Positions 1 to 18,029 of a stretch of 18,383 nt of DNA are shown one piece after another (the first letter of the stretch is position 1; the number at the start of each line of letters is the position of its first letter). The notes under the pieces were generated by a model, which saw only the letters and a program-made list of their open reading frames with translations, made no database searches and was not told where the DNA came from. The stretch comes from Promethearchaeota archaeon. GTDB taxonomy: Archaea; Asgardarchaeota; Lokiarchaeia; Sigyniarchaeales; SOKP01. The DNA lies in assembly GCA_008080735.1 (NCBI GenBank), contig SHMW01000086.1, positions 1-18,383 of the forward strand. The letters run 5' to 3'. Position numbers and translations under genes: made by a program.

Positions 1-170
1 TTTAAACCATTTTAGCTTTCTTTTTCTTTTTTTATCTAATAAAATATATTATATTTCTCTTGTTGTAGATTATCGGCGGATATAAAACCTATTTTGATGT
101 TAATCATCATTTTGAATTAATAATTTTTTATACTCGTGTTTTAATTTTGGATACTATTTTATACACTAAG

Positions 171-180
171 ATATATAAAT
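171..180 (+). promoter_or_regulatory. Candidate TATA box for copB
   Basis: ATATATAAAT ends 32 nt upstream of ATG 213, a spacing that fits an archaeal short-leader transcript. Confidence 0.4.
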
Positions 181-212
181 TAGTCTATTCAGATTTTGGA
201 AAGTATAATATT

Positions 213-2198
213 ATGAAAAACAAGAAAGATGATAACGAAAAAATGAGTAAAAAAAGTCATCGTAAGAAAATGATGCAAGATTTTAAAAGGCGATTTTTTG
301 TCTCATTGGCTTTAACAATCCCTATTTTGGTTTTTTCCCCTACAATTCAATCATTATTTGGCGCATCATTTCAATTTCCCGGTATAACGATAATATCTTT
401 TGTCATGTCATCGATTATTTTCTTCTATGGAGGTTATCCTTTCTTAAAAGGATTACTAGATGAGCTTAAGGATAAACAACCAGGAATGATGACATTAATC
501 GCAGTTGCTATCAGTGTGGCCTATTTTTATAGCACATCCGTCGTATTTAATATTGTAGCAGGAAGGATCTTCTTTTGGGAACTTGCTACTTTAATCGATG
601 TTATGTTAATTGGGCATTGGATAGAAATGAAATCTGTTATTGGTGCTTCACGAGCCTTGGAAGAATTAGTAAAAATTATGCCAACCGTAGCACATCTTAA
701 GGAAGATGGAGAGATTGTTGATGTGAAAGTTGAAAAGTTGGAAAAAGGAGATAAAGTACTTGTTAAACCCGGAGAAAAAATACCTATTGACGGAATTGTC
801 ATAGGAGGTGAAACTAGCATAAATCAAGCAATGATAACCGGAGAATCAGAACCAGTGTTTAAAAGTAAAGATGATGAAGTTATAGGAGGGTCAATCAACG
901 GTGATGGATCGATTACCGTAGAGGTTAAAAAAACAGGAAAAGAAACCTATCTTAATCAGGTTGTAGAAATGGTCTCAGAAGCTCAAAAAAGTAGATCTAA
1001 AACTCAAGATTTAGCCAATAGGGCTGCTTTCTGGTTAACTAGTACTTCAATATCAGTAGGAATTTTGACATTTATAATTTGGATTTTTCTAAACCCCGAT
1101 ATAGCATACGCTATCGAGAGAACTGCAACTGTGATGGTTATTACTTGTCCACACGCCTTAGGTCTTGCCATACCTTTAGTAGTTGCAAGATCCACCTCAA
1201 TCGCCGCCACCTCTGGTTTGTTGATACGGGATAGAAAATCTTTTGAATTCGCAAGGAACATCGAAGCGATTGTATTTGATAAAACGGGCACACTAACAAA
1301 AGGAGAATTTGGGGTAACAGATATCATTACTTCCGAAACCCATACAAGTAAGGAGATTTTAGCTATTGCTGCCTCTTTAGAAACTAATTCTGAACATCCT
1401 ATAGGAAATGGAATTGTGAAATCTGCAAAAGATAGAGATATTGAATTTAAAGAAATTAGGGATTTTGAAGCAATTCCAGGGAAAGGTATAAAAGCTGAAA
1501 TTAAAGACACAGAATATAAAATAGTAAGTCCAGGTTATTTAGAAGAAAATAATATACACTTTAAAGAAAGCAGAGTCGAGAAAGTAAAGAAACAAGGTAA
1601 AACCATAGTGTATTTATTGAAGAATGAAAAAGTAATTGGTGCTATTGCTCTTGCGGATATTATTAGAGAAGAATCTAAAAATGCTATTGATAAACTAAAA
1701 GCTATGGGTATAAAATGCATGATGCTCACTGGAGATAATAAATATGTTGCTCAATGGGTTGCTGAAGAATTAGGTTTGGATGAGGTGATTGCTGAAGTTC
1801 TACCTGATGAAAAGGCAGAAGAAATCAAAAAAGTCAAAGCTCAATATAAGGTCGCAATGGTGGGGGATGGTGTAAATGATGCTCCAGCTTTGGCTAGCGC
1901 AGATGTGGGAATCGCAATAGGGGCTGGAACCGACGTCGCTATAGAAACAGCAGATATTATTCTTGTAAAAAGTGACCCCAGAGATGCCGCAGATATAATT
2001 GAATTATCTAAAAAGACTTATTCTAAAATGGTTCAAAATTTATGGTGGGCCTCGGGATATAATGTAGTTGCAATCCCTCTAGCTGCGGGGGTTTTAGCGG
2101 GATTCGGGATTGTACTTCCACCTGCGATTGGTGCATTGATTATGAGTCTAAGCACAGTAATAGTAGCTATAAACGCACGACTGCTCAAAAAAGAGTGA
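213..2198 (+). CDS. copB: Heavy-metal P1B-type ATPase, P1B-3 (CopB-type copper exporter)
   Basis: PGMMTLIA, FFWELATL, TGES, intramembrane CPH (VITCPHALGLA), DKTGT phosphorylation site, SEHP, TGDN, GDGVNDAP, GYN and MSLST: the P1B-3 signature. The ORF track starts at TTG 147. ATG 213 is preferred because a TATA-like ATATATAAAT lies at 171-180. Confidence 0.93.
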   Translation: MKNKKDDNEKMSKKSHRKKMMQDFKRRFFVSLALTIPILVFSPTIQSLFGASFQFPGITIISFVMSSIIFFYGGYPFLKGLLDELKDKQPGMMTLIAVAISVAYFYSTSVVFNIVAGRIFFWELATLIDVMLIGHWIEMKSVIGASRALEELVKIMPTVAHLKEDGEIVDVKVEKLEKGDKVLVKPGEKIPIDGIVIGGETSINQAMITGESEPVFKSKDDEVIGGSINGDGSITVEVKKTGKETYLNQVVEMVSEAQKSRSKTQDLANRAAFWLTSTSISVGILTFIIWIFLNPDIAYAIERTATVMVITCPHALGLAIPLVVARSTSIAATSGLLIRDRKSFEFARNIEAIVFDKTGTLTKGEFGVTDIITSETHTSKEILAIAASLETNSEHPIGNGIVKSAKDRDIEFKEIRDFEAIPGKGIKAEIKDTEYKIVSPGYLEENNIHFKESRVEKVKKQGKTIVYLLKNEKVIGAIALADIIREESKNAIDKLKAMGIKCMMLTGDNKYVAQWVAEELGLDEVIAEVLPDEKAEEIKKVKAQYKVAMVGDGVNDAPALASADVGIAIGAGTDVAIETADIILVKSDPRDAADIIELSKKTYSKMVQNLWWASGYNVVAIPLAAGVLAGFGIVLPPAIGALIMSLSTVIVAINARLLKKE

Positions 2199-2238
2199 AT
2201 TTAACAATATAAAAAAATTTTTACCTAGTGAATTACCA

Positions 2239-3195
2239 ATGTCAAAAATAACCTCAAAAATTTCTATAATAGGCTGTGGAAATGTGGGAATGGCGTTTGC
2301 ATATGCGGCAATAATAAAGGCGATTGCGCGAGAATTTGTACTTGTCGATATAGATATGGAAAGAATAAAAGGAGAAGTAATGGACTTGAATCATACTGCC
2401 CCCTTTACAAAAACTATCAATATTAAAGCAGGAGAATATAGCGATATAAAAAATTCGGATTTGGTTGTTATCACCGCAGGAAAAAACCAAGAGCCTGGGC
2501 AGACAAGGTTAGATATTGCTCAAGGAAATGTGGATTTATTCAAAAAAATTATCCCGAAAATATACAAGTATGCCCCTGATGCCATTTACTTAGTGGTCTC
2601 GAATCCAGTAGATATATTATCATACGCGGCATATAAAATATCCGGAAAGGAACATCGAGAAATCATTGGTTCTGGTACTACCTTAGACACAGCGCGATTG
2701 CGATTTAAACTCTCTGAGCATTGTGAAGTTGACCCTCGTAATGTCCATGCCTATATTTTGGGTGAGCATGGAGACACAGAATTTCCTGTATGGAGTAGGG
2801 CATTGATAGGGGGGCTATTATTTGATGATTATTGCCACCTCTGCTTTAAAAGAGATCTATGCGACCGGGAAGAACAGATTGATGCGATTTTCACTCAAGT
2901 AAAAAATTCAGCATATAAAATAATAGATAAGAAAAGAGAGACTTCTTATGGTATAGGATTATCACTTGTAAGGATTTCTCAAGCAATTATAAATGATGAG
3001 AATGCTATCTTGCCAGTTTCATGTCTTATAAGCGATTACTTGGGAATCGATGATGTTTTTCTTAGTCTACCACGCGTATTAAATAAGAAAGGAGTTAGAG
3101 AAACCTTAAAATTAAAATTAAATAAGGAAGAAGAAAAAGATTTAAAACATTCCGCAGATACCTTAAAAGACGTATTAGATAGTGTTAGATTTTAA
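2239..3195 (+). CDS. ldh: L-lactate dehydrogenase (LDH/MDH family, Gln-type specificity loop)
   Basis: Rossmann IIGCGNVG; VITAGKNQEPGQTRLD with Gln at the specificity position (MDHs have Arg); VSNPVD, GSGTTLDTARLR, GEHGD, TSYGIG. Confidence 0.88.
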   Translation: MSKITSKISIIGCGNVGMAFAYAAIIKAIAREFVLVDIDMERIKGEVMDLNHTAPFTKTINIKAGEYSDIKNSDLVVITAGKNQEPGQTRLDIAQGNVDLFKKIIPKIYKYAPDAIYLVVSNPVDILSYAAYKISGKEHREIIGSGTTLDTARLRFKLSEHCEVDPRNVHAYILGEHGDTEFPVWSRALIGGLLFDDYCHLCFKRDLCDREEQIDAIFTQVKNSAYKIIDKKRETSYGIGLSLVRISQAIINDENAILPVSCLISDYLGIDDVFLSLPRVLNKKGVRETLKLKLNKEEEKDLKHSADTLKDVLDSVRF

Positions 3196-3220
3196 TAGAT
3201 AGTAACCTAAAACCAATAGA

Positions 3221-3232
3221 TTTCTTTTTTTT
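3221..3232 (+). terminator. Candidate oligo(T) terminator after ldh
   Basis: TTTCTTTTTTTT 25 nt after the ldh stop. Confidence 0.4.
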
Positions 3233-3324
3233 AATACAAAATTTTTGATTTAACTATAAATAAACACAGAAAAACTAATTCTATATCTTAAATTAGATTA
3301 ATAAAATTATAATAGCAATTTGTT

Positions 3325-4623
3325 ATGAATCACAAGAAAATTAAAAAATCGTCCTTTTTAAGATTAATAGGATTATCTTCTTTTCAAGTTCTTACAATGT
3401 TTCGGAGAGGTCTATTTTATACCTATCTTTCAATTTATTTAAGAGATTTTTTAAGGCTTTCTGTGACAGAAACGACCTTGTATGCAACTTTACCAATGAT
3501 AATGAGTGTTTTATTCCAAAATTTTGTATGGGGTCCTCTTTCTGATAAATATCAGCGCCGTCGTACGTTTATAATTATAGGAGAAATTTTGGCAGGAATT
3601 GGAACAATTACTGTATGGTTTATACATCATCCACAATCAAATTACAGGATTGCTGGATATATAATAATAATTGGGCTCACGTTCATAGAAATTTTTTGGT
3701 CTATGTCAAATATTGCTTGGAGTGCTCTGATTAGTGATTTATATCCATCGATAGAGAGAAGTAAAATGATGGGAAAACTCACAAGTATAGGAGGACTTGG
3801 AAGAATCGTTGGAATTACTTTAGGTGGCTTATTATATGATAATGGATTTGGATTTCGAGATGGATATTTATTTATTATTGCTTCTTTTGTAATGTTTATT
3901 TCAACATTACCAATGTTGCTAACTCCAGAAGGCGGAATCGAATATCTTAATAATTCTACAATTGGAGAATCAGAAGATAAAGATATTATCGAAAAAAACA
4001 AACCTAAATTTAATCATAAAAATGTTTTTATCATTTTTATAGTGGCAATGGTTTTTATTAATTTTGGTAGAAATAGCATCAGTATTCCGTATTCTCAATA
4101 TTTAACATTAAAATCTGGATTTTTCGTAGATAGTATCATCTTAAGTTTTATTGTAAACACTCGTTCTTTTGCAGTCATAATAATTGGTTTTACAGCAGGT
4201 TTTTTAAGTAGGAAAATGGGCCATGCTAAAACATTGGCATTGGGAGTTATATTAGCTATTATGTCTCTAATTATAACTGCCACTGCAAAAACTCTATTAA
4301 TGATATTTATTGGTAGTTTTTTAATAGGGGCTTCTGAGGTTATAATTTATGCATCATCTTATGCAATCGCATCAATTCTCATACCAGAACATTATAGAGG
4401 GAAATTATTTGGAGCATATAATGCCACTTTTTTCTTATCATGGGGACTTGCATGTACTGCTATAAGTGGTCCAATAATAGATTTTATGATAAGCTTTGGT
4501 ACGAGTGAAATTAATGCATATAAATCTGCCTTTTTTGTTGGTGCACTTCTAAGTTCAAGCGGTTTAGTAATCTTTATAGTTTCTGAATTAAAACTATGGA
4601 AAAAAAAAAGAAAAAAAAAGTAA
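3325..4623 (+). CDS. Major facilitator superfamily transporter, substrate unknown
   Basis: About 12 hydrophobic segments in two halves with a hydrophilic central loop; motif A-like GPLSDKYQRRR and GFLSRKMG; ERSKMMG / YRGKLFG. Confidence 0.88.
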   Translation: MNHKKIKKSSFLRLIGLSSFQVLTMFRRGLFYTYLSIYLRDFLRLSVTETTLYATLPMIMSVLFQNFVWGPLSDKYQRRRTFIIIGEILAGIGTITVWFIHHPQSNYRIAGYIIIIGLTFIEIFWSMSNIAWSALISDLYPSIERSKMMGKLTSIGGLGRIVGITLGGLLYDNGFGFRDGYLFIIASFVMFISTLPMLLTPEGGIEYLNNSTIGESEDKDIIEKNKPKFNHKNVFIIFIVAMVFINFGRNSISIPYSQYLTLKSGFFVDSIILSFIVNTRSFAVIIIGFTAGFLSRKMGHAKTLALGVILAIMSLIITATAKTLLMIFIGSFLIGASEVIIYASSYAIASILIPEHYRGKLFGAYNATFFLSWGLACTAISGPIIDFMISFGTSEINAYKSAFFVGALLSSSGLVIFIVSELKLWKKKRKKK

Positions 4624-4630
4624 AAAGAGT

Positions 4631-4807
4631 CTATACATCTTTGCAGCAATCTTCGCATTTAAATTCATCTAAATCAATATATCCACACTCTGATCCCATG
4701 TAACATTCATAACTATGTGTCTCCTCATTATAAATCATATCCCGACCACAATGTTGAGGTACAGTATCTAATTCTTTACCACATTTACTACATACTAATT
4801 TTGCCAT
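4631..4807 (-). CDS. 58-aa Cys-rich putative metal-binding mini-protein (not in ORF track)
   Basis: Manual translation: MAKLVCSKCGKELDTVPQHCGRDMIYNEETHSYECYMGSECGYIDLDEFKCEDCCKDV*. ATG at 4807-4805, TAG at 4633-4631, Shine-Dalgarno AGGAGGTG (4824-4817) 9 nt upstream. Shares CxxC..VPxHCG..M..C[WY]MG..C with the neighbouring ORF and the CopA C-terminus. Confidence 0.85.
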   Translation of the reverse strand: MAKLVCSKCGKELDTVPQHCGRDMIYNEETHSYECYMGSECGYIDLDEFKCEDCCKDV

Positions 4808-4877
4808 ATTTTACAACACCTCCTATTATAATATTTGAATGAATACTCTGAAAAAATGATTTTATTAATAAAAAAAA

Positions 4878-5084
4878 TTATTGAATTATTTTCAAGGGTT
4901 TTCCATGATGCTCGGGTATATCGCTAGATTCACAATCAGGTCCCATCCAACAGATAAGCCGCCCGTCTTTCAAGCGCATTGGTTTTCCACAGTGAGTTGG
5001 AACTTCTTCTGTGTAGTTGCATTCTTGACATTCGAATTTTTGAATAATATATTCGGTCTCTGGTTCCCAGCTTTCCTTAGACAA
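4878..5084 (-). CDS. 68-aa Cys/His putative metal-binding mini-protein, paralog of the CopA C-terminal domain
   Basis: TTG start with AGGTGA Shine-Dalgarno (5096-5091) 6 nt upstream. The last 50 aa are 33/50 identical, ungapped, to the last 50 aa of CopA. Confidence 0.87.
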   Translation of the reverse strand: MSKESWEPETEYIIQKFECQECNYTEEVPTHCGKPMRLKDGRLICWMGPDCESSDIPEHHGKPLKIIQ

Positions 5085-5113
5085 TGTTTATCACCTTTTA
5101 ATTTTTTTAGGAA

Positions 5114-5128
5114 TTTTATAAGTTTTTT
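5114..5128 (-). promoter_or_regulatory. Candidate internal BRE/TATA promoter for the 68-aa gene
   Basis: Minus strand AAAAAAC-TTATAAAA about 30 nt upstream of the TTG; resembles AAAACTTATAT upstream of the rRNA leader. Confidence 0.4.
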
Positions 5129-5148
5129 ACATATATCTTCTTTAGATT

Positions 5149-8100
5149 TTATTTTACTATTTTCATTGGCTTACCATGATGTTTGGGAATTTCTTGTTTT
5201 CCGCATTCGGGACCCATCCAACACACCAATAAGCCATTCTCTTTATGCATCTGTTTTCCGCAATGCATTGGAACTTCTTCAGTATAGTTGCATTCTTGAC
5301 ATTGTAAAATCGGTTTTTGAGACACTGTATCAGATCCTGTTTGATCTATTGAAGTTTTTTCGACTACGGTTTCCTCCTCCTCAAGATATTTCTCAGGATT
5401 CATTTTGAACTTCTTCAAACAATTCGGATTACAGAAATAATATGTATCACCGTTATATTCATAATTGGTCCATTTTTCAGGTTCTGACGTGGTCATTCCA
5501 CAAACGGGATCCTCTACTAGTTCTTTTCCTTTTTCTCCACCCTTATGCATTAGTTTCGGGTCGATATTATTATAATCCTTGAATTTCTCCGGATTTTGTT
5601 CAAAGGTTTTCTCGCAGGATGGATTACAGAAATAAAAGGTTTCTCCTTTGTACTCATGTTCTATAGATTGGCTTGGGATAATTTTCATTCCGCAAACAGG
5701 GTCAGTTACGACTTCCTCTTGTTCCAATAACATTTCTTCTTCAATTTGTTGTTCTGTTTTAGGATCAAACCGTTTTAAGAAGAGTGCATTAGTGACCACT
5801 GAAACAGAACTTGAAGCCATAAAGACCGCCGCTAAATAAGGCGGCAAAAAGTAGCCAGTTATGTAAAAGAGTAGTCCTGCTGCGATCGGAATCCCGATAA
5901 CGTTATAAATAAATGCCCAAAATAGATTGCTTATCATTTTTCGGTAGGTCTTATGGGATAACTTTAATGCAGCTACCACATTTCGCAGATCCCCCCTCAT
6001 TAAAACAATACTTGCTGTTTCTATTGCGACATCAGTCCCAGAACCTATTGCAATGCCTATATCTGATTGAGCTAATGCGGGAGCATCGTTTATACCATCA
6101 CCAACCATTCCGATGATTTTTCCAGATTTTGATTGTTGTAGCTCTTCTATTTTAAGTGCCTTATCATTTGGAAGAACTTCTGCCAAGATATGGTTCTCAT
6201 CAAATCCTAATTCTTTTCCGATTGCAAGAGCTGTTTCTTTATTATCTCCTGTAATCATATAGAGCTCTAATCCCATATTCCTCAATTTTTCTAAAGCATA
6301 GGGCGCTTGCTCCTTGATTTTATCAGATATTCCAATAATTCCCCTCAAAGTGCGATCAACACTTATAAAAATCGTGGTTATTCCTTTTTGCTGAAATTCA
6401 AGGAATTTTTCCCGAAAATTACTAAAATCTATACTTTCTTCTTTCATTAATTTCTCATTTCCGATCAATACTTGTGAACTGTCAATTGTGGCAACTACAC
6501 CTTTTCCGGGAACGGCATCAAATTTTTCGGGGGAAATTAGGTTAAGACCTTTTTGATTAGCTTCCTCAATAATAGCTCTCGCTAAGATATGTTCTGATCC
6601 CATTTCAGCACTTCCCGCGTAATAGAGCAATTCTTTTTCATCGAAACCTTCACTTTTCAATTCTTTTTCGGTAAATATCTCAACTACGCTGGGTTTCCCA
6701 ACAGTTAAAGTTCCTGTTTTATCAAACACAATAATATCTAAATTATTAATCGATTCGAGGGAATCGCCCCCTTTGATTAATATTCCATTTTCGGCACCTT
6801 TGCCAGTTCCTACCATTACCGCAGTTGGTATCGCTAATCCAAGTGCGCATGGACACGATATAACCACTACAGAAGTAAAAACTAGGAGAGCACGTTCCAA
6901 ACCTATATCAGCTATTAAAAACCAGTATACAAAAGCGATTAATGCTATAGCAACCACAGCGGGAACAAAATAATTACTCACTTTATCTGCCAGTTTCTGC
7001 TTTTCTGCCTTCCTAATTTGTGCTTTCTTAACGAAATCTATAATTTGAGAAAGGACAGTATCTTTTCCAACTTTTGTCGTTTTGATATGTATCAATCCCG
7101 TCTGATTTATCGTACCTCCAATAACTTCTTCGTCTATTTCTTTTTTTATATATCTACTTTCTCCAGTAATCATTGACTCGTCAATCTTAGTTTTTCCCTT
7201 TACAACTACACCGTCAACAGGGATCTTCTCTCCAGGTCGTACTACCAAAACATCTCCAAGCTCTATTTCTTCTATTGGAATATCCGTTTCTCTCCCATCT
7301 TTCAAGAGAGTTGCAGTTTTTGGCTGCAATCCAATTAACTTTTTTATTGCTTCTGAGGTTTGTCCTTTTGTTTTATGCTCGAAGTATTTTCCAATCAATA
7401 AAAATGAAAGGATCATACTCATGGCTTCGTAAAAAGTAGTTCCTTCGATAAAGAAGGTGGTTAACACAGAATACACGTAAGCGGTGGTTGTTCCAAGAGC
7501 CACTAGAACGTCCATATTAGTTGATTTATTTTTAAGCGACTTATAGGCACCTTCTAAGAAAAAAGATCCAGCTATAATATAATTTCCAGTCGCAAGAAAG
7601 AATAATACCAGATTTCTGATGAAAGATTCAACTATAAACCAACTAATCGGGGTAATGATCAGTGTAAACGCAAGGGATATAAATAGAATTCTTAACCTAT
7701 ATTTCAATTCTTTTTGATGGGCCTCGATCTCTTTATCTACAGCTCCAGCTGCCTTTGTGATATCGTATCCAAATTCTTTTACTCTTGAATAAATTTCATT
7801 TTCACTGATTTGGATATCATTAAACTCAATAAATAATTTACGAGCTTGGTAATTCCCTCTTATGTTTTCGATTCCTTTTATTTTTTCCACATTTTCTACG
7901 AGTTCATTAAACTCTTGCTCAGAAATTGATACAGTCTCCTTGATTTTTAAATCCATCCTTGCCAAGGATGCCTTATAGCCAAGATCTTGTATAGCTTTAT
8001 TAAAAATCCTATAGTCTGCTTTTTCTGGGTCAAATTCTACGAGAGCTTCTTCATTGGTGAAATTTACGTTAGATGTCTTAACACCTTCAAGGTTTTTGAG

Positions 8101-8184
8101 CTTTGTTTCAATTTTAAGTGCGCAGCTCGCACAAGTCATCCCTCCGAGCTTTATTTTCATTTGTTCTTCTTTTGTTTGACTCAT
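5149..8184 (-). CDS. copA: Cu(I)-exporting P1B-1 ATPase with N-terminal HMA, C-terminal 2x YHS/TRASH and an extra Cys/His domain
   Basis: GMTCASC HMA; NMDVLVALGT; TGES; CPCALGLA; DKTGT; TGDN; GDGINDAP; YN and MASSS transmembrane Cu(I) ligands; two DPVCGM...Y.G..[FY]YFC...C repeats. Confidence 0.95.
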   Translation of the reverse strand: MSQTKEEQMKIKLGGMTCASCALKIETKLKNLEGVKTSNVNFTNEEALVEFDPEKADYRIFNKAIQDLGYKASLARMDLKIKETVSISEQEFNELVENVEKIKGIENIRGNYQARKLFIEFNDIQISENEIYSRVKEFGYDITKAAGAVDKEIEAHQKELKYRLRILFISLAFTLIITPISWFIVESFIRNLVLFFLATGNYIIAGSFFLEGAYKSLKNKSTNMDVLVALGTTTAYVYSVLTTFFIEGTTFYEAMSMILSFLLIGKYFEHKTKGQTSEAIKKLIGLQPKTATLLKDGRETDIPIEEIELGDVLVVRPGEKIPVDGVVVKGKTKIDESMITGESRYIKKEIDEEVIGGTINQTGLIHIKTTKVGKDTVLSQIIDFVKKAQIRKAEKQKLADKVSNYFVPAVVAIALIAFVYWFLIADIGLERALLVFTSVVVISCPCALGLAIPTAVMVGTGKGAENGILIKGGDSLESINNLDIIVFDKTGTLTVGKPSVVEIFTEKELKSEGFDEKELLYYAGSAEMGSEHILARAIIEEANQKGLNLISPEKFDAVPGKGVVATIDSSQVLIGNEKLMKEESIDFSNFREKFLEFQQKGITTIFISVDRTLRGIIGISDKIKEQAPYALEKLRNMGLELYMITGDNKETALAIGKELGFDENHILAEVLPNDKALKIEELQQSKSGKIIGMVGDGINDAPALAQSDIGIAIGSGTDVAIETASIVLMRGDLRNVVAALKLSHKTYRKMISNLFWAFIYNVIGIPIAAGLLFYITGYFLPPYLAAVFMASSSVSVVTNALFLKRFDPKTEQQIEEEMLLEQEEVVTDPVCGMKIIPSQSIEHEYKGETFYFCNPSCEKTFEQNPEKFKDYNNIDPKLMHKGGEKGKELVEDPVCGMTTSEPEKWTNYEYNGDTYYFCNPNCLKKFKMNPEKYLEEEETVVEKTSIDQTGSDTVSQKPILQCQECNYTEEVPMHCGKQMHKENGLLVCWMGPECGKQEIPKHHGKPMKIVK

Positions 8185-8341
8185 AATTATATTTACCCTA
8201 ATAACTATGGTATAATTGCAATTTGAAATAATTATAAATTATGTTTATAGAATGTAAAAAAAGACAAATGTTGTGGATTAAGATAAAAGCAAAAGTCTGA
8301 ATTTTCTATAATTTATTAACAAATCCCTTAGAAATATGCCT

Positions 8342-8740
8342 TTAAAAAGAGTCTACTTTGGTTTTTTTTTTTGCTTCATATTTATTTATTGCATCTCGAA
8401 GACCATCGCTTGCTAGATTACTACAATGCATCTTAGCTTCGGGGAGACCATCTAAAGCTGCGGCGATATCTTCCCGAGTGATTCTTGAGGCTGTTTGGAG
8501 CTTTTTTCCCTTCGCTAATTCTGTTAAGATACTCGATGTAGCAATCGCTGCAGCACATCCAAAGGTTTGGAATTTTATGTCTTCTAAAAATTCCTCACCA
8601 TTCTTTTCGCCAACTTTAATATAAATATAGGTGATATCCCCGCAAACGGGATTTCCCGCTTCACCAATAGCACTCGGATTATCTAATTCACCCATATTTT
8701 TTGGGTTTTTAAAATGATCCATCACTTTATCTGAATAAAT
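8342..8740 (-). CDS. iscU: Fe-S cluster scaffold protein IscU/NifU-N (start uncertain: ATT 8740 or GTG 8725)
   Basis: DHFKNPKNMG, GNPVCGD, FQTFGCAAAIATSS, LPEAKMHCSNL with all three Cys and the His ligand; in-frame YSDK lies upstream of the GTG. Confidence 0.93.
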   Translation of the reverse strand: MYSDKVMDHFKNPKNMGELDNPSAIGEAGNPVCGDITYIYIKVGEKNGEEFLEDIKFQTFGCAAAIATSSILTELAKGKKLQTASRITREDIAAALDGLPEAKMHCSNLASDGLRDAINKYEAKKKTKVDSF

Positions 8741-8975
8741 TTTGAAAGCCTCGCTAAAGTCTCAATAATTATTCCTTTAAGTTACTAAAAGAAGGGAAAA
8801 ATAAAACAAAAAATTTTCTAATTGACTAATTCAAAATTTAATGTGTAAAATTTTTCATTAAAATTTTCACTTAGGAGCCTTCAGAATTTAAAATTAAAAA
8901 GTATCATTTTTAAATAGCACAATAAATTTCTATTATCATTCCTTTCATTAAATAATTACAAGAGAGTGAGCGCCT

Positions 8976-10121
8976 ATGGAAAAAATTAAAATTGGAATCT
9001 GTGGAATCGGAAATTGTGCCAGTAGTTTAGTTCAGGGCATTGAATATTATAAAAACAAAAAACCGGAGCATGCGATTGGGTTAATGCACTGGGTTATTCA
9101 CAATTATACTCCAAGAGATATAGAAATAACTTGTGCATTTGATATTGATAAAAGAAAAGTTGGAAAAGATGTATCTGAAGCTATTTTTTCTAAACCTAAT
9201 TGTTCTAAGACAATTTGCGAAAATATCCCCCATATGAATGTGGAGGTAAAAATGGGAAGGATATTAGATGGTTTTGCCCCTCACATGAAAAATTATGCTG
9301 AAGAATCATCTTTTTTATTAGCAGATGCTGAAGAGCCAACAAAAGAAAAGATTGTCGAAGAATTAACCAAATCGGAATGCGAGGTTTTATTAAATTATCT
9401 GCCTGTTGGGTCTGATAAAGCAGTAAAATTTTATGCAGAATGTGCTCTGAAAGCAAATGTTGGATTCATAAATTGTATGCCTGTTTTTATTGCAAGTGAT
9501 CCCCAATGGGCAAATAAATTCGAGCGGAAAAATATACCAATTATCGGAGATGACATAAAATCTCAACTAGGCGCAACAATCGTCCATAGAGTTCTCACTA
9601 ACCTTTTTAAGAATCGAGGAGTTCACTTAGACCGAACTTATCAATTGAATACTGGAGGGAATACAGACTTTTTGAATATGTTAGACAGAAATCGATTAGC
9701 CTCAAAAAAGACCTCTAAAACGGAAGCAGTCCAATCTCAAACATCTTTGAGGTTAAAAGAAGAAAACATTCATATTGGTCCGAGTGATTGGGTCTCATGG
9801 CAAAAAGACAATAAAATATGCTTTATCCGCATGGAAGGGAGAATTTTTGGAGATATCCCTATAGATCTGGAGCTGAGGCTTTCAGTCCAAGACTCACCGA
9901 ATTCGGCAGGAGTGGTAATAGATGCAATACGTTGTATGAAACTAGCGCTAGATAGAGAACAAGGCGGGATCTTATATGCACCTTCGGCCTTTTTTATGAA
10001 ACACCCTCCGATGCAACTTACCGATGAGCAAGCATTTGAATTAACTGAGGACTATATTAAAGGTGATTTTCAGAAACAAAGTCCAATCGAAATAGAACAA
10101 TATATCAAGAATAATTTATAA
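8976..10121 (+). CDS. ino1: myo-inositol-1-phosphate synthase
   Basis: GIGNCASSLVQG, AFDID, NYLPVGS, GDDIKSQLGAT, YQLNTGGNTDFLNM, SKKTSKT, DSPNSAG. Confidence 0.95.
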   Translation: MEKIKIGICGIGNCASSLVQGIEYYKNKKPEHAIGLMHWVIHNYTPRDIEITCAFDIDKRKVGKDVSEAIFSKPNCSKTICENIPHMNVEVKMGRILDGFAPHMKNYAEESSFLLADAEEPTKEKIVEELTKSECEVLLNYLPVGSDKAVKFYAECALKANVGFINCMPVFIASDPQWANKFERKNIPIIGDDIKSQLGATIVHRVLTNLFKNRGVHLDRTYQLNTGGNTDFLNMLDRNRLASKKTSKTEAVQSQTSLRLKEENIHIGPSDWVSWQKDNKICFIRMEGRIFGDIPIDLELRLSVQDSPNSAGVVIDAIRCMKLALDREQGGILYAPSAFFMKHPPMQLTDEQAFELTEDYIKGDFQKQSPIEIEQYIKNNL

Positions 10122-12521
10122 TTATTGATTCAAAATCATAAGTTTTCGTTCTTGAGGAGTGGAGACTTTTTCTACTCCTAATGTGGTTACATATTTAGCC
10201 ACGTCCACTAACTTTTTAGGACTTTCATGAAAGAAACAGACTTCATCTGGTTCGAGGTTTTTAATCATCTCGGTTAATTGCACCTTATCACCATGAAGCT
10301 TTATTTTAATTTGCGGAGCGAAGGTATTTACTAATAATGCTCTAAAAGGAATTTTCCAAGTTTCTGAAAGTTCAATTATTCTCTCCTCATTTTTCTTGTC
10401 TTCGGGAGGGTGAACTAATGATTCTCCTGGTTCCTCATGAATTGCTCCCGCTAAAAACACAAGATTATGAGGATTCCTCCCAACTACGTTAATAATATTA
10501 CGAATAATTCCATATGAGAGATCTGGTGGATGAGAAATGATGATATTATTTTTCTTTTTTAGAAAGTCCAAATCATCATGACTAAACCACCGAAATTTTA
10601 TGCTATTAAATGGATTAGCTTTATTACGAATTAATCGTGAAATAGGACCGTAAATATATTCATAGCGATGATTTATCACTTGGATATTCTTCCTTACCAT
10701 CATATCCACATAGATATTGGGTCTTTTTTTATAATCGCGTCTAAGTTGTTTTTTACGGAAATGGCGCCAAAAAGTAAGCATAAAACTAATCGCCAAACTT
10801 GAAGGATCCGCTCCGATTAAGGAACTATCTCCGTATTCCGCTTTTTGTTCTAAAAACAAAATCAAGCTGTGAAAATGTTGCGATGGATTACCAAATTCTT
10901 CATACGCATTGGAACCATCAATTAACAAAAAATCCAATGGTTTGGATATTTGATCCAAAAATCTACGCGTGCCTGCGAATGGGGTTATATCGTAATACGT
11001 ATAATCACCAGAATAGAGGAATCGATAATTTCTGGCCTTAACCAGCATCATCAAAGCACCCGGCATATGACCCGCATGAAAAAAGGATAAATAGCAATTT
11101 TTATCTTTGAATTCGATCTTATCGCCATTCTCAACATATATTACATTTTTGACAATATTTCTGTATTCCTCCTCTTCGACTTCATCATGATCTTCTTGTT
11201 TTAAAAAATCGGAATCGCGTAAAAGATAAAGGTCTAAAGTAATTCTCGAGCATAAGATGGGAACATCAGGATGTTTTTTAATGAAGTCTTTTAACCCAGA
11301 TACGTGATCATAGTGAGAATGCGATAAAAACACAGCATCAATTTTGGGTTGGAAATCTGCAACATTTAGGATGATATTTTCTGATTTTTCTGATACTTCA
11401 ATATTTAGTTTGCTTTTTTCGCCTTGGGTTTCGTGAACATCCAGAATTTTTTTACCGTTATCACCTTCAATGTCTTCTTTTTCATTATCAGGGATTTGAT
11501 CTTGACTTTCAGATAAAATTATCTTACTTTTTTGGTCTGTTATAAGTAAATCATTCAAATTTGAAAGATACTCTTCAATATCTTCCAAAAATTCTTCCCC
11601 AATTCCACAATCAAGAAGGATATTTAATTGACCAATTCCCAAAATAATACAATTATGGTTGGGTCTCAGGGCAATTGGGTAAAGGGTTAAACGAATTTTA
11701 TCAGTATCTTTTAGATTTTGTGAGAGAAGGGTGTCTTTAAAGTAATTAGAGTCATATTTTTTATCTATTTTATCAATTGCTAGAGAGATCTCACTTTTAC
11801 CGACCGGTACACCTGTGATATAGAAATACCACCCGTATGCTCTTACTAAGTTTTCTAAATTTTCGTACATTTTATCTCCAATTAGAGATTTGATAACAAT
11901 TACTTTTTCATTTTCATAGTAAATGATTTTTCTAATTGCTTCCTTCTCTTTTTTTGGAATAGATTTATTTTCTGTTAAAAAGTGATTTAGAGTCTGTTTT
12001 ATGTCTTTTTGAGTGATATTGTTTGATTTAATGATATTTAGGTATTTGTGATATTCTTTGGTTTTGTATAGAGGTCGCATGTTTTCTTTTTCTGTTAATT
12101 CAATTTCGAATCCATCAACTTGAAAAATCTCCTCACTTACAACAGTTTCTCCGGATTTAGTTTTTTTCTTTTCCTTATCTCGGTAACGTTTTGTAACAAA
12201 GAAAAACCACCCATATTTCTTAACCAAATCTTCACGCTTCCAAATTATTTCCTTCCCATGGTTAGATTCAACAATTATAATCCTATCTTTTTCGCTATAT
12301 ATAATATTGGTAATTGACTTTAAGGTTGATTCTGAGATTATCTTATTTTTTTCGGAAAAAAAATCATTGACTACCTCCTCAATAGGCTCTTGTTTAATAT
12401 TCTCTTCATCCATCAATTCTAATTTCTCTTTATATGAACGTACTTTAAAAGATGAGGATAATTGGTGTTTTTGTTGGATAGCAATCGTTTGATTATGATA
12501 ATTTATTGATTCCTTTTCCAT
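10122..12521 (-). CDS. Divergent MBL-fold beta-CASP nuclease (CPSF73/aCPSF-like) with extended N-terminus
   Basis: LLDCG; FLSHSHYDH (HxHxDH); HAGHMPGA; YSGD; LLIDGS (motif A-like); KLHGD (motif B-like); FFHE (motif C His). About 270-aa N-terminal extension with an internal repeat. Confidence 0.8.
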   Translation of the reverse strand: MEKESINYHNQTIAIQQKHQLSSSFKVRSYKEKLELMDEENIKQEPIEEVVNDFFSEKNKIISESTLKSITNIIYSEKDRIIIVESNHGKEIIWKREDLVKKYGWFFFVTKRYRDKEKKKTKSGETVVSEEIFQVDGFEIELTEKENMRPLYKTKEYHKYLNIIKSNNITQKDIKQTLNHFLTENKSIPKKEKEAIRKIIYYENEKVIVIKSLIGDKMYENLENLVRAYGWYFYITGVPVGKSEISLAIDKIDKKYDSNYFKDTLLSQNLKDTDKIRLTLYPIALRPNHNCIILGIGQLNILLDCGIGEEFLEDIEEYLSNLNDLLITDQKSKIILSESQDQIPDNEKEDIEGDNGKKILDVHETQGEKSKLNIEVSEKSENIILNVADFQPKIDAVFLSHSHYDHVSGLKDFIKKHPDVPILCSRITLDLYLLRDSDFLKQEDHDEVEEEEYRNIVKNVIYVENGDKIEFKDKNCYLSFFHAGHMPGALMMLVKARNYRFLYSGDYTYYDITPFAGTRRFLDQISKPLDFLLIDGSNAYEEFGNPSQHFHSLILFLEQKAEYGDSSLIGADPSSLAISFMLTFWRHFRKKQLRRDYKKRPNIYVDMMVRKNIQVINHRYEYIYGPISRLIRNKANPFNSIKFRWFSHDDLDFLKKKNNIIISHPPDLSYGIIRNIINVVGRNPHNLVFLAGAIHEEPGESLVHPPEDKKNEERIIELSETWKIPFRALLVNTFAPQIKIKLHGDKVQLTEMIKNLEPDEVCFFHESPKKLVDVAKYVTTLGVEKVSTPQERKLMILNQ

Positions 12522-12705
12522 GATTTAAAATCTGAAAATAATTAATTAGGTATACTTCCTAATTGAATTTAAAAATCGATAACAATAAAATTTAATTATT
12601 CATTGAATTTTAGAAATAAGCAAATTATCTGAATAAAGTGACAGGTTTGAGGATTTAAATACAAACTTTGAGTAGCTTAGTTACTAAACTCCAATCTTTC
12701 TATGA

Positions 12706-12897
12706 TTATCTTCTTTCTGTAAGCACATCTATTTCTGATATCGGAATATAGGTACTATTATTGTATTTATCTTTAAGAACCACTAAATCATCTTCAGTAA
12801 TACGGGTTAGGGTTCCACTGAATTTTTCACTAATATTTTTGATATAGATATAAACATCAACGTCTATAAGTTCATTTAATAATTTTTTTGGGATCAT
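12706..12897 (-). CDS. Small protein with probable Sm/LSm-like fold
   Basis: Short N-terminal helix (PKKLLNELI), then V-x-I-x-I, FSGTL, LVVLKD and YIPISEI strand pattern reminiscent of Sm1/Sm2; recognised by eye only. Confidence 0.55.
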   Translation of the reverse strand: MIPKKLLNELIDVDVYIYIKNISEKFSGTLTRITEDDLVVLKDKYNNSTYIPISEIDVLTERR

Positions 12898-13017
12898 TTT
12901 AAGAAACTCTTATTTTTGTTTAGTATTATCATTTTATTTTCATCCTTATAATTTTTAACTTTTTCATTTATGTTTCAAATTAGTGATGGGAAGGAGATCA
13001 ATAATGAAGGAGAGAAT

Positions 13018-13668
13018 TTAAGAATCAATTGAAAGGTGAGATTTTTTTTTTCTAATCTCCTCTTTTAAGCTATCAATAAGCTTTTCTTTTTCTAAAATGG
13101 TTTCTTCAATATTATAACATAGTTTTTCCAACTCATCACACTTTTTTGCGAATGTGACTTCATATTCAGATTCAGTGGTTTCTATAGGTTTTTCACTGAG
13201 ATCTTTTAATTCTTTAATATTTTTTTGTTTAACTTCTAATTCCTCTTTAAGAAGTCTTATTTCTTCTTCGGTTTTCAAGATATTTTGGATTATTATATCG
13301 TTTTTGTCCATATCAATTAATTCTTCGATTTTTAAGAGATATCTTCTAATCGCGCTTAATTTCAGTTCTCGAGATTCTTCGGCTTTAAAGAACAAAGCAA
13401 TGTTACTTTCTTCTCCGAGCTTTAGTAATATAATTGAAAAAGCCTCTGTTTCACATATTATTTTATTATATTTTTCCAAATCAAATTTTGTTAGATTATA
13501 AATTTGCTTGAAATTCTCAACAATTTGAGCAAAAATCTCTCCGATTTTAGGTATGTTTATGCTTTGATCTAACGTTGTTTCAAATACAATTCCGTTATTA
13601 TAAAACATAATAATATGTGAAACTTCGGGTAAAGCATTTTTAATTCTTTCAATACTTTTAAACACCAT
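13018..13668 (-). CDS. Hypothetical protein: Roadblock/profilin-like N-terminal domain plus C-terminal coiled coil
   Basis: Helix-strand-(NNG)-strand-long helix-three strands pattern in aa 1-95; E/K/L-rich heptads in aa ~125-210; starts 7 nt after the transporter stop. Confidence 0.55.
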   Translation of the reverse strand: MVFKSIERIKNALPEVSHIIMFYNNGIVFETTLDQSINIPKIGEIFAQIVENFKQIYNLTKFDLEKYNKIICETEAFSIILLKLGEESNIALFFKAEESRELKLSAIRRYLLKIEELIDMDKNDIIIQNILKTEEEIRLLKEELEVKQKNIKELKDLSEKPIETTESEYEVTFAKKCDELEKLCYNIEETILEKEKLIDSLKEEIRKKKSHLSIDS

Positions 13669-13675
13669 TATTTTA

Positions 13676-15121
13676 TCACTTTATAATTTTTAATTTCATT
13701 TTTTTTAGAGTAATTAATGTGCCTTCTTTTAGCTTTTTTGGTCCAACCTTCGTCATTAAAAAAATTACTACAATCAATGAAACCGTTAGAAGAAATACAA
13801 TCAAACCGATTTCAGGTCGGAAAATGAGTGTATAGATAATACTCACAATGAATAATTGATAGATAGTCGTGATGAATCCTAATTTAAAAAATTGGTTTAT
13901 AGATATTGGTCGTTTATTCTGTTCTGCGATATTGACTACTAAAATATTATCTCCTAAGGGGGTTAAATTATCACCCCAATTTGCACCGATATCTAACCCT
14001 ATATAAAGTTGCTTTCTTACGGAATCTGAGACTATACTGGGAATCTCACTCACAATGGGAATAAGAACCTTTGTTATGGGAATATTATCAATTGAACTGC
14101 TTAATAAGGCGGATAACCAGAGAACTAAAAGAAATAGGATATAGGTATCAGATCCTCCTAAAAGAGAGACAAAATCTCCTATATAATTAAGTAATCCTGT
14201 AATTTCTAAAGCTCCAGCCATAATAAAGATCCCTAATAGATAAAATATTAATTCTATATCAATCTTTGAAATAATTTCTCTTGGATTCAAGCGGCTAATT
14301 ATGATCAGAATTATTGCCATAGTTAGCGCGATAATATCAGGTGAGATTAATGAAGAGGGAACAAGCAAAAATAAGGCTAATAAGATGACAAGAAAGGTCA
14401 TAGTTTGATATAATAAACGTTTATTTTGGACCACGTTCCACACATTATATTCTTTCAACACACGCAGACCATCTTCTGATATTGTCAATTCACTTTTATA
14501 GAGAAGAATGAAGAAGGCTAATGTAAAAAAGAAGATTATAATCGAAATTAATCCTACCGTAAGGAAAAACTCTAAAAAGCAGATATCTGCATAAGTCGTT
14601 ATTAGAATATTCGGAATTGAGGATATGGAAAAAATCGTCCCACCAATATTTACCAATATTGCTTGGGTTAAAATATATGGAGAGGGATTGATATTAAGAA
14701 TTCTTGAAATTGTAATAGTAAGTGGAATTAGGATGATCACAGTGAGGATATTATTCAAAATTGCAGAAATTAGCAGTGTAACGACACACATAATTATCAT
14801 TAATATAACGGGCTTAGCTTTTGATAATTTAATCATATTAATAGCGATAAACTGAAACATTCCGGCTTCATGTGAAATTTGTACAATAATCATCATCCCA
14901 ATGATTAGAACCAAGGCATGGAGATTTACATAGTCTTCATCTTTACTACTAAATAACAAATCAACGATAATGCTAAAATCATAATTCTCAAGAAAAATTA
15001 ATACAAAATAACAGACGATAGCTCCCGATAATGCTGCAACAGCCCTGTTAAGTCTCTCTGTAATAATCAAGAATATAACTAAGATGAAACTCATTAGAAC
15101 TATGAGAGAACTTATGAACAT
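13676..15121 (-). CDS. ArsB/NhaD/SLC13 (ion-transporter superfamily, P-protein-like) permease
   Basis: Very hydrophobic; SAILNN, NIGGTIFSISSIPNI, SSSIDNIP, GANWGDNLTPLG, ISINQFFKLG. Confidence 0.82.
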   Translation of the reverse strand: MFISSLIVLMSFILVIFLIITERLNRAVAALSGAIVCYFVLIFLENYDFSIIVDLLFSSKDEDYVNLHALVLIIGMMIIVQISHEAGMFQFIAINMIKLSKAKPVILMIIMCVVTLLISAILNNILTVIILIPLTITISRILNINPSPYILTQAILVNIGGTIFSISSIPNILITTYADICFLEFFLTVGLISIIIFFFTLAFFILLYKSELTISEDGLRVLKEYNVWNVVQNKRLLYQTMTFLVILLALFLLVPSSLISPDIIALTMAIILIIISRLNPREIISKIDIELIFYLLGIFIMAGALEITGLLNYIGDFVSLLGGSDTYILFLLVLWLSALLSSSIDNIPITKVLIPIVSEIPSIVSDSVRKQLYIGLDIGANWGDNLTPLGDNILVVNIAEQNKRPISINQFFKLGFITTIYQLFIVSIIYTLIFRPEIGLIVFLLTVSLIVVIFLMTKVGPKKLKEGTLITLKKMKLKIIK

Positions 15122-15174
15122 CGGAAACTTACTTTTTTATATTAATTATGATTTGAATTAATTGTTCGAAATAA

Positions 15175-15196
15175 ATTTTATTGATATCAATAAAAT
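15175..15196. promoter_or_regulatory. Perfect 22-bp palindrome, candidate operator between divergent genes
   Basis: ATTTTATTGATATCAATAAAAT equals its own reverse complement. Confidence 0.5.
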
Positions 15197-15256
15197 GTAA
15201 CCTCTAAATGAGAGAGAGGATAAACCACATATAATTAAAAAAGGTGGCAAATTAGA

Positions 15257-15898
15257 ATGATTGATGAATTCTCTTTTATATTATTCTTGGGGTGTGTGTC
15301 TATATACATTATTCTATTTATAATACGTTCTCGAAATCGTGGGAGTTCAGAACGTTCAACACTCAATTTAATATACAGAAATTGGGTTCAAAATAGGATG
15401 ACCGACGAAAATCTGCTCTATGCTACTCAAGCACTTCGCAATTTTATAATGGGAAACGCAACTTTCATTTCAGGTTTGTTGATATTAGTAGGAATTTTAG
15501 TTGGATTATATAACACGCAAATTTTAAGTTCTGAACCTTTTTGGGGTTTTCAAGAAATAAATATTGGTTTTTTGCAGATGGCTTCAAATCTCGCACTAGT
15601 GTTTTTCTCACTATTCAACTTCATCCTTTCAATTAGGTATATTGTCCGAGTATCTCTTTTATTGACAGGAGATATAAAAAAATACTCGGAAGGAGAATAT
15701 AATGGGATTGATATCGCAAAAAAAGCCTTTATATCGGCTCAAAACCACTGGTTTTTTGGAAATCGGGGATTATTTTTTATTTTTGCAACTCTTTCTTGGT
15801 TAATTGATTCACTCTTTTTCATTCTCGTGATTTTAATTATTACGGTATATCTTGTTGTTTTTCAAGATATATGGGTTGCATCTAAGAAGCACGATTAA
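15257..15898 (+). CDS. DUF599-like membrane protein
   Basis: R..WV, QALRNFIMGNATF and FFGNRGLFF motifs with about 5 hydrophobic segments; AGGTGG SD-like sequence upstream. Confidence 0.7.
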   Translation: MIDEFSFILFLGCVSIYIILFIIRSRNRGSSERSTLNLIYRNWVQNRMTDENLLYATQALRNFIMGNATFISGLLILVGILVGLYNTQILSSEPFWGFQEINIGFLQMASNLALVFFSLFNFILSIRYIVRVSLLLTGDIKKYSEGEYNGIDIAKKAFISAQNHWFFGNRGLFFIFATLSWLIDSLFFILVILIITVYLVVFQDIWVASKKHD

Positions 15899-15902
15899 GT
15901 TT

Positions 15903-17090: not shown

Positions 17091-17275
17091 TTGATTAAGA
17101 TTTTGGTTAATTTAGGAAGCAAATTCTTGAATTTATTCCGTTATAAAAATATAAGGATCAGATATAGATTAATCTTATTTTATTAAAGATGAATATTAAT
17201 ATACAATGAATTCACTTTAAGGAATAATAAATATAAATACATGAAATTTTCTTTACCAATTAGAAGTGATTAGCA

Positions 17276-17836
17276 ATGGGATTAAAATTTGTCTGGGGTA
17301 TGACTGGGACGGGGTACTTATTGAAAGAATCTATTGATATTATGAAAAAATTACAGGAAAAATATGATGCAGAAATAACAGTAATGCTATCTAAAGAAGG
17401 TGCTGTGGTTGTGAAATGGTATAAACAATGGGACTATCTTAACGAAGTAATCAAAAGAGTGAAAGTGGAAAATACACCTAACAATCCATTCTTAGCAGGA
17501 CCCTTGCAGATTGGAAAATATAATTTCCTTTTAGTCTGTCCAGTTTCAGCCAACTCTGTTGCGAAAATAGTATATGGAATCGCTGATACATTAATTACAA
17601 ATTGCGTGGCCCAGACCATCAAAGGAGATGTTCCCGTTTATTTACTACCTTCAGACCAACACAAAGAACCAATCGTAACTACAAAACCCGACGGGAGTCC
17701 ATTAGTATTGAAAATACGAGATATAGAAATGGAAAATGTAGAAAAATTGAGAAAAATGGAAGGAATAACGGTTCTTTCAGACTTTTCTCAACTAAAAAGC
17801 CTATTGACTAAAAAATCTGAAGAAAAAAGTAAGTAG
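17276..17836 (+). CDS. afpA: Archaeal flavoprotein, AfpA family (HFCD flavoprotein fold)
   Basis: WGMTGTG, GPLQIGKY, PVSANSVAKIVYGIADTLITN, LPSD; no ferredoxin insertion. Confidence 0.75.
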   Translation: MGLKFVWGMTGTGYLLKESIDIMKKLQEKYDAEITVMLSKEGAVVVKWYKQWDYLNEVIKRVKVENTPNNPFLAGPLQIGKYNFLLVCPVSANSVAKIVYGIADTLITNCVAQTIKGDVPVYLLPSDQHKEPIVTTKPDGSPLVLKIRDIEMENVEKLRKMEGITVLSDFSQLKSLLTKKSEEKSK

Positions 17837-17986: not shown

Positions 17987-18029
17987 TTTTATTATACTTA
18001 TATTCTTTGTAATCATTTACCAAAATGAT

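Follow-up and report, generated by a model that had tools for sequence, protein, structure and literature searches.

The window analysed here is an 18,383-nucleotide stretch (positions 1 to 18,383) of contig SHMW01000086.1 from a Promethearchaeota archaeon of the Lokiarchaeia type (Asgard). It encodes CopA, a P1B-1 Cu(I)-type ATPase, and two small proteins of 68 and 58 amino acids (aa) downstream of it. The C-terminal tail of CopA and both small proteins contain one homologous Cys/His module of about 50 residues, on which BLAST and profile comparison agree. The module represents an undescribed domain family in a known kind of role. According to the best-supported reading, it would be a versatile two-site metal-binding module, for which work as accessory or partner of Cu(I) pumps would be one main use. 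Metal binding by the module, together with metal transfer or regulation, is inferred. The four open reading frames (ORFs) and module copies at the centre of the analysis are as follows.

5149..8184, minus strand: CopA, P1B-1 Cu(I)-type ATPase of 1011 aa (TIGR01511, Pfam and motifs)
5152..5307, minus strand: copy 1, the last 52 residues of CopA (joint profile, E 1.5e-31)
4878..5084, minus strand: copy 2, free 68-aa protein with a TTG start (63% identity to the CopA tail)
4631..4807, minus strand: copy 3, free 58-aa protein of a diverged subtype with an ATG start (profile and synteny)

A preliminary description of this DNA had reported three related, co-oriented copies, with Shine-Dalgarno sites in front of both small genes. 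The reading frames, their translations, and their shared minus-strand orientation are as described, and both ribosome-binding sites are real and properly spaced. It had also counted 33 of 50 identical residues between the CopA tail and the 68-aa protein; the homology stands, and the count is corrected to 33/52 (E 4e-28). The 58-aa protein is more distant, with 13/35 residues identical to the CopA tail (E 3e-7). In the alignment of the three copies, the elements C, C, VP, HCG, M, C, MG, and C are invariant. A profile built from this alignment recovers each copy in the 4.1-Mb genome at E values from 4e-27 to 9e-32, far beyond chance. The window copies also fit an alignment of 40 family sequences, which makes them members of a new two-unit family.

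Architecture of the module

The two halves of the module resemble each other. An off-register BLAST match links them, and when the halves of the 40-sequence family alignment are compared using hhalign, they match with 98% probability (E 1.7e-13). The module thus arose by tandem duplication of one unit of about 24 residues. Each unit consists of a strand, a CxxC knuckle, a second strand, and a (V/I)P-x-(H/C)(C/H)-G-x-P-M segment, so that its motif can be written CxxC-x7-(H/C)C-G-x-P-M; the second unit opens with C[WY]MGxxC. Invariant columns of the family alignment are C19, C22, H31, C45, and G48, while P29, C32, M36, M47, C51, P57, H59, and M64 are conserved in at least 90% of sequences.

The residues in ligand positions vary in a characteristic way. 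In the CopA tail, unit 1 carries C,C,H,C and unit 2 carries C,C,H,H. Across about 270 instances, the adjacent pair of unit 1 (positions 31-32) is HC in 183, CC in 18, and HH in 4, and the corresponding pair of unit 2 is HH in 114 and HC in 52, with position 60 swapping between H and C. Such exchanges of histidine and cysteine at paired positions are the behaviour expected of metal ligands. With four putative ligands in each unit, the module should hold two metal ions. Sequential pairing of the ligands is preferred over an interleaved arrangement because of the repeat structure, the existence of variants with two plain units (such as P0097), and the alignment with desulforedoxin discussed below. 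The 58-aa type has kept unit 1, with its HC pair; its unit 2 reads CYMGxxCGY, and the chain ends in CxxCC in place of HH. Six cysteines are invariant throughout the 58-type family, and its profile matches that of the canonical family at 98.4% probability in hhalign (E 7.6e-15).

The AlphaFold2 model of the 68-aa protein, calculated with the family alignment, is confident: its predicted local distance difference test (pLDDT) score is 87.5 for the whole chain and exceeds 90 within the module. The model is all-beta, with six short strands and no helix. The model of the 58-aa protein is of moderate quality (pLDDT 79).

Association with Cu(I) pumps

Module loci were collected with an 11-sequence alignment, giving 80 named loci with 126 module ORFs. 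Of these ORFs, 73/126 are attached to P1B ATPases, a proportion that is biased upward because similarity to the CopA tail was the criterion by which the loci were selected. Within the fused set, 56 modules are C-terminal, 9 ORFs carry a double C-terminal module, 7 carry an N-terminal module placed ahead of two HMA domains, and 1 sits where a contig is truncated. Free ORFs of at most 130 aa within 500 bp of a pump account for another 46 of the 126, and one more free ORF is found about 1.1 kb away. For the remaining 6, the locus contains no pump: five stand at contig ends and resemble cut-off pump fragments or partners, and the sixth is a free form from Thorarchaeota. The pumps themselves are uniform in type: among module-bearing ATPases of at least 700 aa, the CPC pattern occurs in 68/69 and YN in all 69.

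The commonest layout, seen 31 times, is a tailed pump followed by a free small gene. Fission forms occur as well. At one locus (G229:C40; L154 7830-10931, minus strand), a tailless ATPase of 909 aa is abutted by a free 55-aa module, and an 86-aa gene of the 58 type comes next. In a closed genome from the same order, a tailless pump is followed 135 bp later by a free 53-aa module; the fused form, too, is known from closed genomes of that order. The preliminary description had proposed co-occurrence and fusion with P1B ATPases as a check on its claim, and this check yields a tight tie to Cu(I)-type pumps through fusion, fission, and the downstream gene.

Unequal origins of the two free genes

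The three copies are not equivalents: the 58-aa type is a conserved pump partner, whereas the 68-aa gene arose locally by duplication of the tail. The 68-aa protein is of the same canonical type as the CopA tail, and its nearest relatives are CopA tails, not free forms. Long identical blocks of DNA are common to the 68-aa gene and the tail. In G275 and G277, sister genomes of the same genus, the 58-type gene is the next one after CopA and lies about 75 bp past the tail match. The 68-aa duplicate was seen in the species cluster of the window only, and a word-indexed protein search with the 68-aa protein returned nothing beyond its own cluster. Judged by this pattern of identity and synteny, the CopA tail was duplicated recently and in this lineage only, and the duplicate has become the free 68-aa gene.

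The 58-aa type behaves differently from the 68-aa duplicate. It lies on the same strand within 600 bp downstream of an ATPase in 47/52 cases at the named loci and in 17/18 cases at loci from the family to which the window belongs. When 46 genomes of that family were searched in six frames without this selection bias, the strongest 58-type matches fell directly after CopA tails. On gene order, the 58-aa gene is a conserved downstream partner of such pumps.

These data bear on the view that the small genes have no functional link to CopA, being leftovers of tail duplication or fission, or generic zinc proteins beside a pump. This view would be in keeping with the 68-aa gene as a local duplicate confined to one species cluster, and with the promoter-like and T-run signals that each small gene may possess. 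It is nevertheless highly improbable, given that genomes of Loki, Odin, Thor, Hod, and Hermod type all have the 58 type, with its invariant cysteines, as the gene immediately downstream of the pump, and that the module is fused to both ends of pumps, and in bacteria as well.

Proposed role in the absence of a free copper chaperone

The preliminary description had noted that no CopZ-like gene is visible in the window, and the same holds for the whole assembly (93% complete). Searching this assembly with PF00403 gave a single HMA match, at the N-terminus of CopA, and PF04945 found YHS domains in CopA only. Forty relatives with a completeness of 90% or more yielded no free HMA either; every HMA match fell in a long, pump-sized frame. 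The arrangement of a tail plus free copies, which occurs in hundreds of Asgard genomes, is probably a substitute for the CopZ copper chaperone that is missing here.

The soluble modules may accordingly be envisaged as serving CopA in the manner of CopZ/HMA, binding Cu(I), exchanging it or docking, and delivering metal or relieving autoinhibition; this proposal is given slightly better than an even chance. The Cys/His sites of the free 58- and 68-aa proteins would take up Cu(I), and perhaps Zn(II), from the cytosol, and the proteins would dock on, or swap metal with, the like domain on CopA or the CopA entry platform. That like domain, the CopA tail, is the final cytosolic part of the Cu(I)-exporting pump and comes behind two YHS domains. 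The outcome would be metal delivery, or relief of CopA autoinhibition, in a lineage without a free HMA chaperone. A role at the copper pump is supported by the pairing with HMA and YHS/TRASH domains, the fusions at both pump ends, the fission forms, and the missing CopZ.

Several observations weigh against this proposal, among them the upward bias in the fused share mentioned above. Many archaea without CopZ need no substitute, and C3H and C2H2 ligand sets are typical of structural Zn. In Thorarchaeota (L116-L129), a single free 55-aa copy lies in a conserved co-oriented cluster in 14/14 sampled genomes, with no P1B ATPase within 8 kb of the module copy in any of them. This cluster begins with a 4Fe-4S ferredoxin, an acyl-CoA dehydrogenase (ACAD), the 55-aa module, and a nitroreductase-family protein, and ends with a 125-aa unknown protein, a 412-aa unknown protein with a weak Zn_ribbon_3 match, and a metallo-beta-lactamase (MBL)-fold protein. 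The genome of the window itself contains a comparable case, a fifth copy in the form of a paralogue of the 58-aa type that is 57 aa long and His-less (C30:15589-15753; L155 6090-6263, plus strand). It is situated between a divergent operon for ACAD and the beta and Fer4-bearing alpha subunits of an electron transfer flavoprotein (ETF) and the genes for an MBL protein and methylmalonyl-CoA mutase, a synteny kept in a sister genome (L156). Relatives of this His-less subtype include fusions with SCP2.

Homologues without a link to metal transport, which the preliminary description had regarded as fatal to its idea, thus exist in part (Thorarchaeota, contig C30, SCP2 fusions), and the tie to pumps stands elsewhere. 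Its proposal of a metallochaperone or buffer family serving CopA survives as regards the family, the pump tie, and the lack of a free HMA, but not as regards copper-specificity or the equivalence of the copies.

Other architectures and a possible structural zinc role

Further architectures extend the range of the module. A fourth, degenerate copy in the same genome forms the last ~55 residues of a Zn/Cd-type P1B-2 ATPase on contig C12 (L158 2111-4273, minus strand). This ATPase has 720 aa and no HMA, and scores 455 bits against TIGR01512 (cut-off 313); its module reads CxxC...HH in unit 1, followed by CW..., C, and CxxC. Pairing of the module with YHS/TRASH recurs outside pumps, in proteins of ~190-260 aa that combine a Roadblock/longin-like domain, a TRASH domain of HVO_1752_C type, and the module (P0039, P0042, P0054, P0068, P0073, P0082). 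These proteins are possible metal sensors. A YHS plus module architecture is also present. One cluster joins the module to sigma-70 region 4 (P0030) and could be an assembly chimera, and in P0111 and P0121 the module stands behind a winged-helix-like N-terminus, a fusion of helix-turn-helix (HTH) type. Both of these fusions are candidate metal-responsive regulators. The ACAD, ETF, and ferredoxin loci, together with the SCP2, TRASH, and HTH fusions, indicate that the module is not copper-specific.

Two alternatives to a copper-exchanging module are kept alive by the ligand chemistry, the redox-gene neighbourhoods, and the likeness to desulforedoxin. The first is a structural Zn module, in which zinc would be bound permanently, the CopA tail would be a regulatory, autoinhibitory, or docking element, and the free proteins would compete for its interface with no transfer of metal. 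The C2HC and C2H2 ligand sets agree with it, as do database matches limited to sub-threshold zinc-ribbon hits and a weak best fold match to a Zn-binding Cys-rich region (CRR), that of PriA (Z 2.9). The many unrelated partners (SCP2, HTH, sigma-70 region 4, Roadblock) are as for a generic adaptor, and terminal domains of P1B ATPases have been argued to act as sensors for autoinhibitory tails (PMC11970713). However, the module is recurrently paired with the metal-handling HMA and YHS/TRASH domains, and its fused forms occur strictly with the Cu(I)-type pump class. Furthermore, the conserved methionines beside the ligands (GxPM, CWMG) and the CxxCC end would resemble soft-metal sites. On balance, a structural zinc module is considered unlikely.

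Distribution

An exhaustive HMMER profile scan of 1.84 billion representative proteins detected 117 clusters worldwide that match the module at E <=0.001, 37 of them at E <=1e-10. P0020, P0110, and P0120 were rejected as members, being repeat proteins or sharing just the CWMG string. In the phylum of the window, 272/400 genomes have a match. Its own family is nearly saturated (128 of 134 genomes), and some other families searched in the phylum have none. Archaeal named records come from Promethearchaeota/Promethearchaeia, Heimdall-, Hod-, Hermod-, Thor-, Odin-, and Helarchaeota, and a few Bathyarchaeota. The bacterial ones are few, namely Deferrimicrobium, a Binataceae bacterium, and an Elusimicrobiota bacterium. 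As far as these records go, the module family is centred on Asgard archaea.

Known families and the likeness to desulforedoxin

The claim that the module is neither HMA nor YHS/TRASH is borne out. PF00403 has no match on the three copies or on 40 family members, the MxCxxC motif is absent, and the AlphaFold2 model has no helix; HMA/CopZ membership was therefore rejected. PF04945, PF08394, and PF24273 likewise have no match on the module, the free proteins, or 40 relatives, and the YHS matches in CopA are confined to residues 843-935, so that YHS/TRASH membership was discarded as well. With the complete Pfam and NCBIfam collections, the three copies and 40 relatives gave sub-threshold hits only, to assorted zinc-ribbon families. 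A sequence search of the PDB gave nothing significant, and Foldseek found no match to either AlphaFold2 model at E <=0.001. The best scores of a wide VIA fold search are weak, Z 2.9 for the Zn-binding CRR of PriA and 2.8 over 35 residues for desulforedoxin, and such weak results show neither a new nor a known fold. In databases, relatives are called "hypothetical protein"; those attached to a pump fragment go under "YHS domain-containing protein". The ESM Atlas places the module among unnamed Promethearchaeota clusters, with Desulfoferrod_N as the nearest named one (0.80, a lead only). No description of the module was found in the full-text literature, a search whose coverage excludes subscription journals and InterPro. 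The family is real, conserved, and without a Pfam or NCBIfam match to a characterised family, as had been proposed.

The further suggestion that the module has no assigned relatives holds for database families, but its repeat unit aligns with desulforedoxin. In hhalign, the canonical family matches desulforedoxin domains from related genomes at 83% probability (E 8.8e-6) over a short stretch of 23-25 columns, and the 58-type family does so at 95% (E 2.7e-8), again in a short, motif-based match. Forty column-shuffled desulforedoxin profiles used as controls reached at most 4.4%. Unit 1 covers the whole 36-residue desulforedoxin domain minus a 7-residue deletion. Membership of PF06397 (Desulfoferrod_N) was nonetheless rejected, as this model misses the module and the window copies do not have the four-Cys set of CxxC plus CC. 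In a six-frame search of 61 related genomes, PF06397 found true desulforedoxin or desulfoferrodoxin in 48/61 and the module never; on 40 family members, two reach E 0.1 only, below the cut-off. A CC pair is found in ~18 of some 220 unit-1 instances. The genome of the window also encodes a true desulforedoxin of 39 aa (C32:12177-12281; L135 1489-1608, minus strand), with 63 bits against PF06397. Since the desulforedoxin match is short and rests on the motif, the likeness is taken to reflect either distant kinship or convergence of the unit, and the module is not counted as a desulforedoxin.

The second alternative follows from this likeness. The module may be a redox-active iron centre of desulforedoxin/rubredoxin type, that is, an electron carrier that would reduce Cu(II) to Cu(I) for the pump or sense redox state, and that would elsewhere serve flavoenzymes. 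Beyond the hhalign scores and their controls, the arguments for it include the CC pair of some members, as in true desulforedoxin, the ESM Atlas neighbour, and the weak desulforedoxin fold match. The ferredoxin, ETF, ACAD, and nitroreductase neighbours in Thorarchaeota and on contig C30 fit as well, and the N-terminal [2Fe-2S]/Zn domain of Archaeoglobus fulgidus CopZ is a precedent. Against it stand the failure of PF06397 to find the module in genomes where it detects the true genes, the His that the window copies carry where the CC pair has its second Cys, and the 7-residue deletion. In addition, Cys3His and Cys2His2 sets are unusual for rubredoxin-type iron, and the genome already has a true desulforedoxin. 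The probability of an iron centre is rated as low.

A wider proposal would bring these strands together. The module may be descended from desulforedoxin as a pseudo-dimer in a single chain, with two Cys/His sites, and may represent a previously unrecognised class of metallochaperone and pump domain that Asgard archaea use in place of CopZ/HMA for Cu(I) P1B ATPases. A degenerate form would serve a Zn/Cd pump, and paralogues would work with ACAD/ETF systems. This proposal is tentative, being possible but clearly short of an even chance.

Features of the CopA locus

CopA scores 618 bits against TIGR01511 (cut-off 397), and Pfam recognises HMA, E1-E2_ATPase, Hydrolase (HAD), and two YHS domains in it. 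The combination of CPC, YN, and MxxSS motifs is the mark of a P1B-1 Cu(I) exporter. All three can be read in the CopA sequence, as CPC in transmembrane helix (TM) 4, FIYN in TM5, and MASSS in TM6, which places the protein in this class. From the N-terminus, its parts are HMA, a weak HMA_2, the membrane/A/P/N core, YHS, YHS, and the new module. The YHS matches occupy residues 843-935 and the module starts near residue 960, with a linker of ~25 residues between them. The remaining features of the locus are listed below.

7972..8151, minus strand: N-terminal HMA of CopA with GMTCxxC (PF00403 search of own genome, E 3.5e-16)
5578-5709 and 5380-5517, minus strand: two YHS/TRASH-type domains of CopA (PF04945 search of own genome, E 2.7e-12 and 9e-14)
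5091..5095, minus strand: Shine-Dalgarno GGTGA of the 68-aa gene, 6 nt ahead of TTG (read directly)
4817..4823, minus strand: Shine-Dalgarno GGAGGTG of the 58-aa gene, 9 nt ahead of ATG (read directly)
4870..4877, minus strand: T8 run directly past the stop of the 68-aa gene (read directly)

A TATA-like TTATAAAA lies ~30 nt further upstream of the Shine-Dalgarno site of the 68-aa gene and may be its promoter. The T8 run 3' of this gene is a possible archaeal oligo-T terminator. Past the 58-aa gene there is a T-rich stretch (~4600-4626), which is also the complement of the A-rich, poly-Lys-coding end of a gene for a major facilitator superfamily (MFS) transporter. This convergent MFS gene (3325-4623, plus strand) ends almost back to back with the 58-aa gene.

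The window holds a second copper-type P1B ATPase at 147-2198 on the plus strand, 3 kb from CopA and on the opposite strand. This protein of 683 aa has a CPH motif, scores 630 bits against TIGR01511, and is without HMA, YHS, and the new module. Iron-sulfur assembly genes neighbour the copper export genes: an IscU-like gene (8342-8725, minus strand) and a NifS/cysteine desulfurase gene (15903-17090, minus strand) flank the copper locus.

Comparison with known systems and significance

The catalogued set of P1B terminal domains and chaperones comprises HMA, His-rich stretches, YHS/TRASH, cupredoxin-like, and hemerythrin-like types. A close parallel in arrangement is CopZ/HMA (PF00403), where one small fold likewise serves both as a terminal domain of a Cu(I) P1B-1 pump and as a free protein encoded next to it, and where the number of copies on the pump is also one or two. 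In contrast to HMA, the new module has no HMA sequence match, offers two four-ligand Cys/His sites instead of one MxCxxC loop, and is mostly C-terminal, behind YHS domains. CupA of Streptococcus pneumoniae, a dedicated chaperone that shares a cupredoxin-like fold with a domain of CopA, provides another parallel, in that a non-HMA fold is common to pump domain and chaperone. The new module is unlike any cupredoxin and differs from this system in fold, ligands, and lineage. The cupredoxin-like domain has been named as an alternative fold for metal-binding domains (PMC11970713).

With desulforedoxin (PF06397), the module has in common the CxxC(G)...(C/H)CGxxM motif and a beta-knuckle build, and its two units per chain would mimic the two-centre homodimer. 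It differs in a hairpin that is 7 residues shorter, in the His that usually replaces one Cys, in its tandem units with a CWMG insert in the second, and in a context of copper pumps rather than superoxide reductase. The YHS/TRASH domains (PF04945, PF08394, PF24273) are similar as small Cys-based metal modules of archaeal copper systems, and they stand directly upstream of the new module both on pumps and in the Roadblock-TRASH-module proteins. The new module has another motif and is a separate domain. Archaeoglobus fulgidus CopZ carries an N-terminal Cys-rich domain with Zn and [2Fe-2S], for which a redox role has been proposed. The resemblance consists in a Cys-rich extra domain on an archaeal copper trafficking protein; the PDB searches gave no sequence or fold match between the two.

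The module would add a further fold to the terminal domains of P1B ATPases, one that is modelled by no database. Whether such domains act as sensors or as donors is still debated (PMC11970713), and the naturally fused, split, and free forms of the module make the question of chaperone versus regulator directly testable. Hundreds of "hypothetical" proteins of 55-70 aa would gain a name and a testable function. A link in evolution between desulforedoxin-type sites and copper handling is possible, and if the proposed descent is true, a desulforedoxin-derived fold bridges metal trafficking and electron transfer. Asgard archaea are the closest archaeal relatives of eukaryotes, and in several of their lineages most of the genomes searched contain the module.

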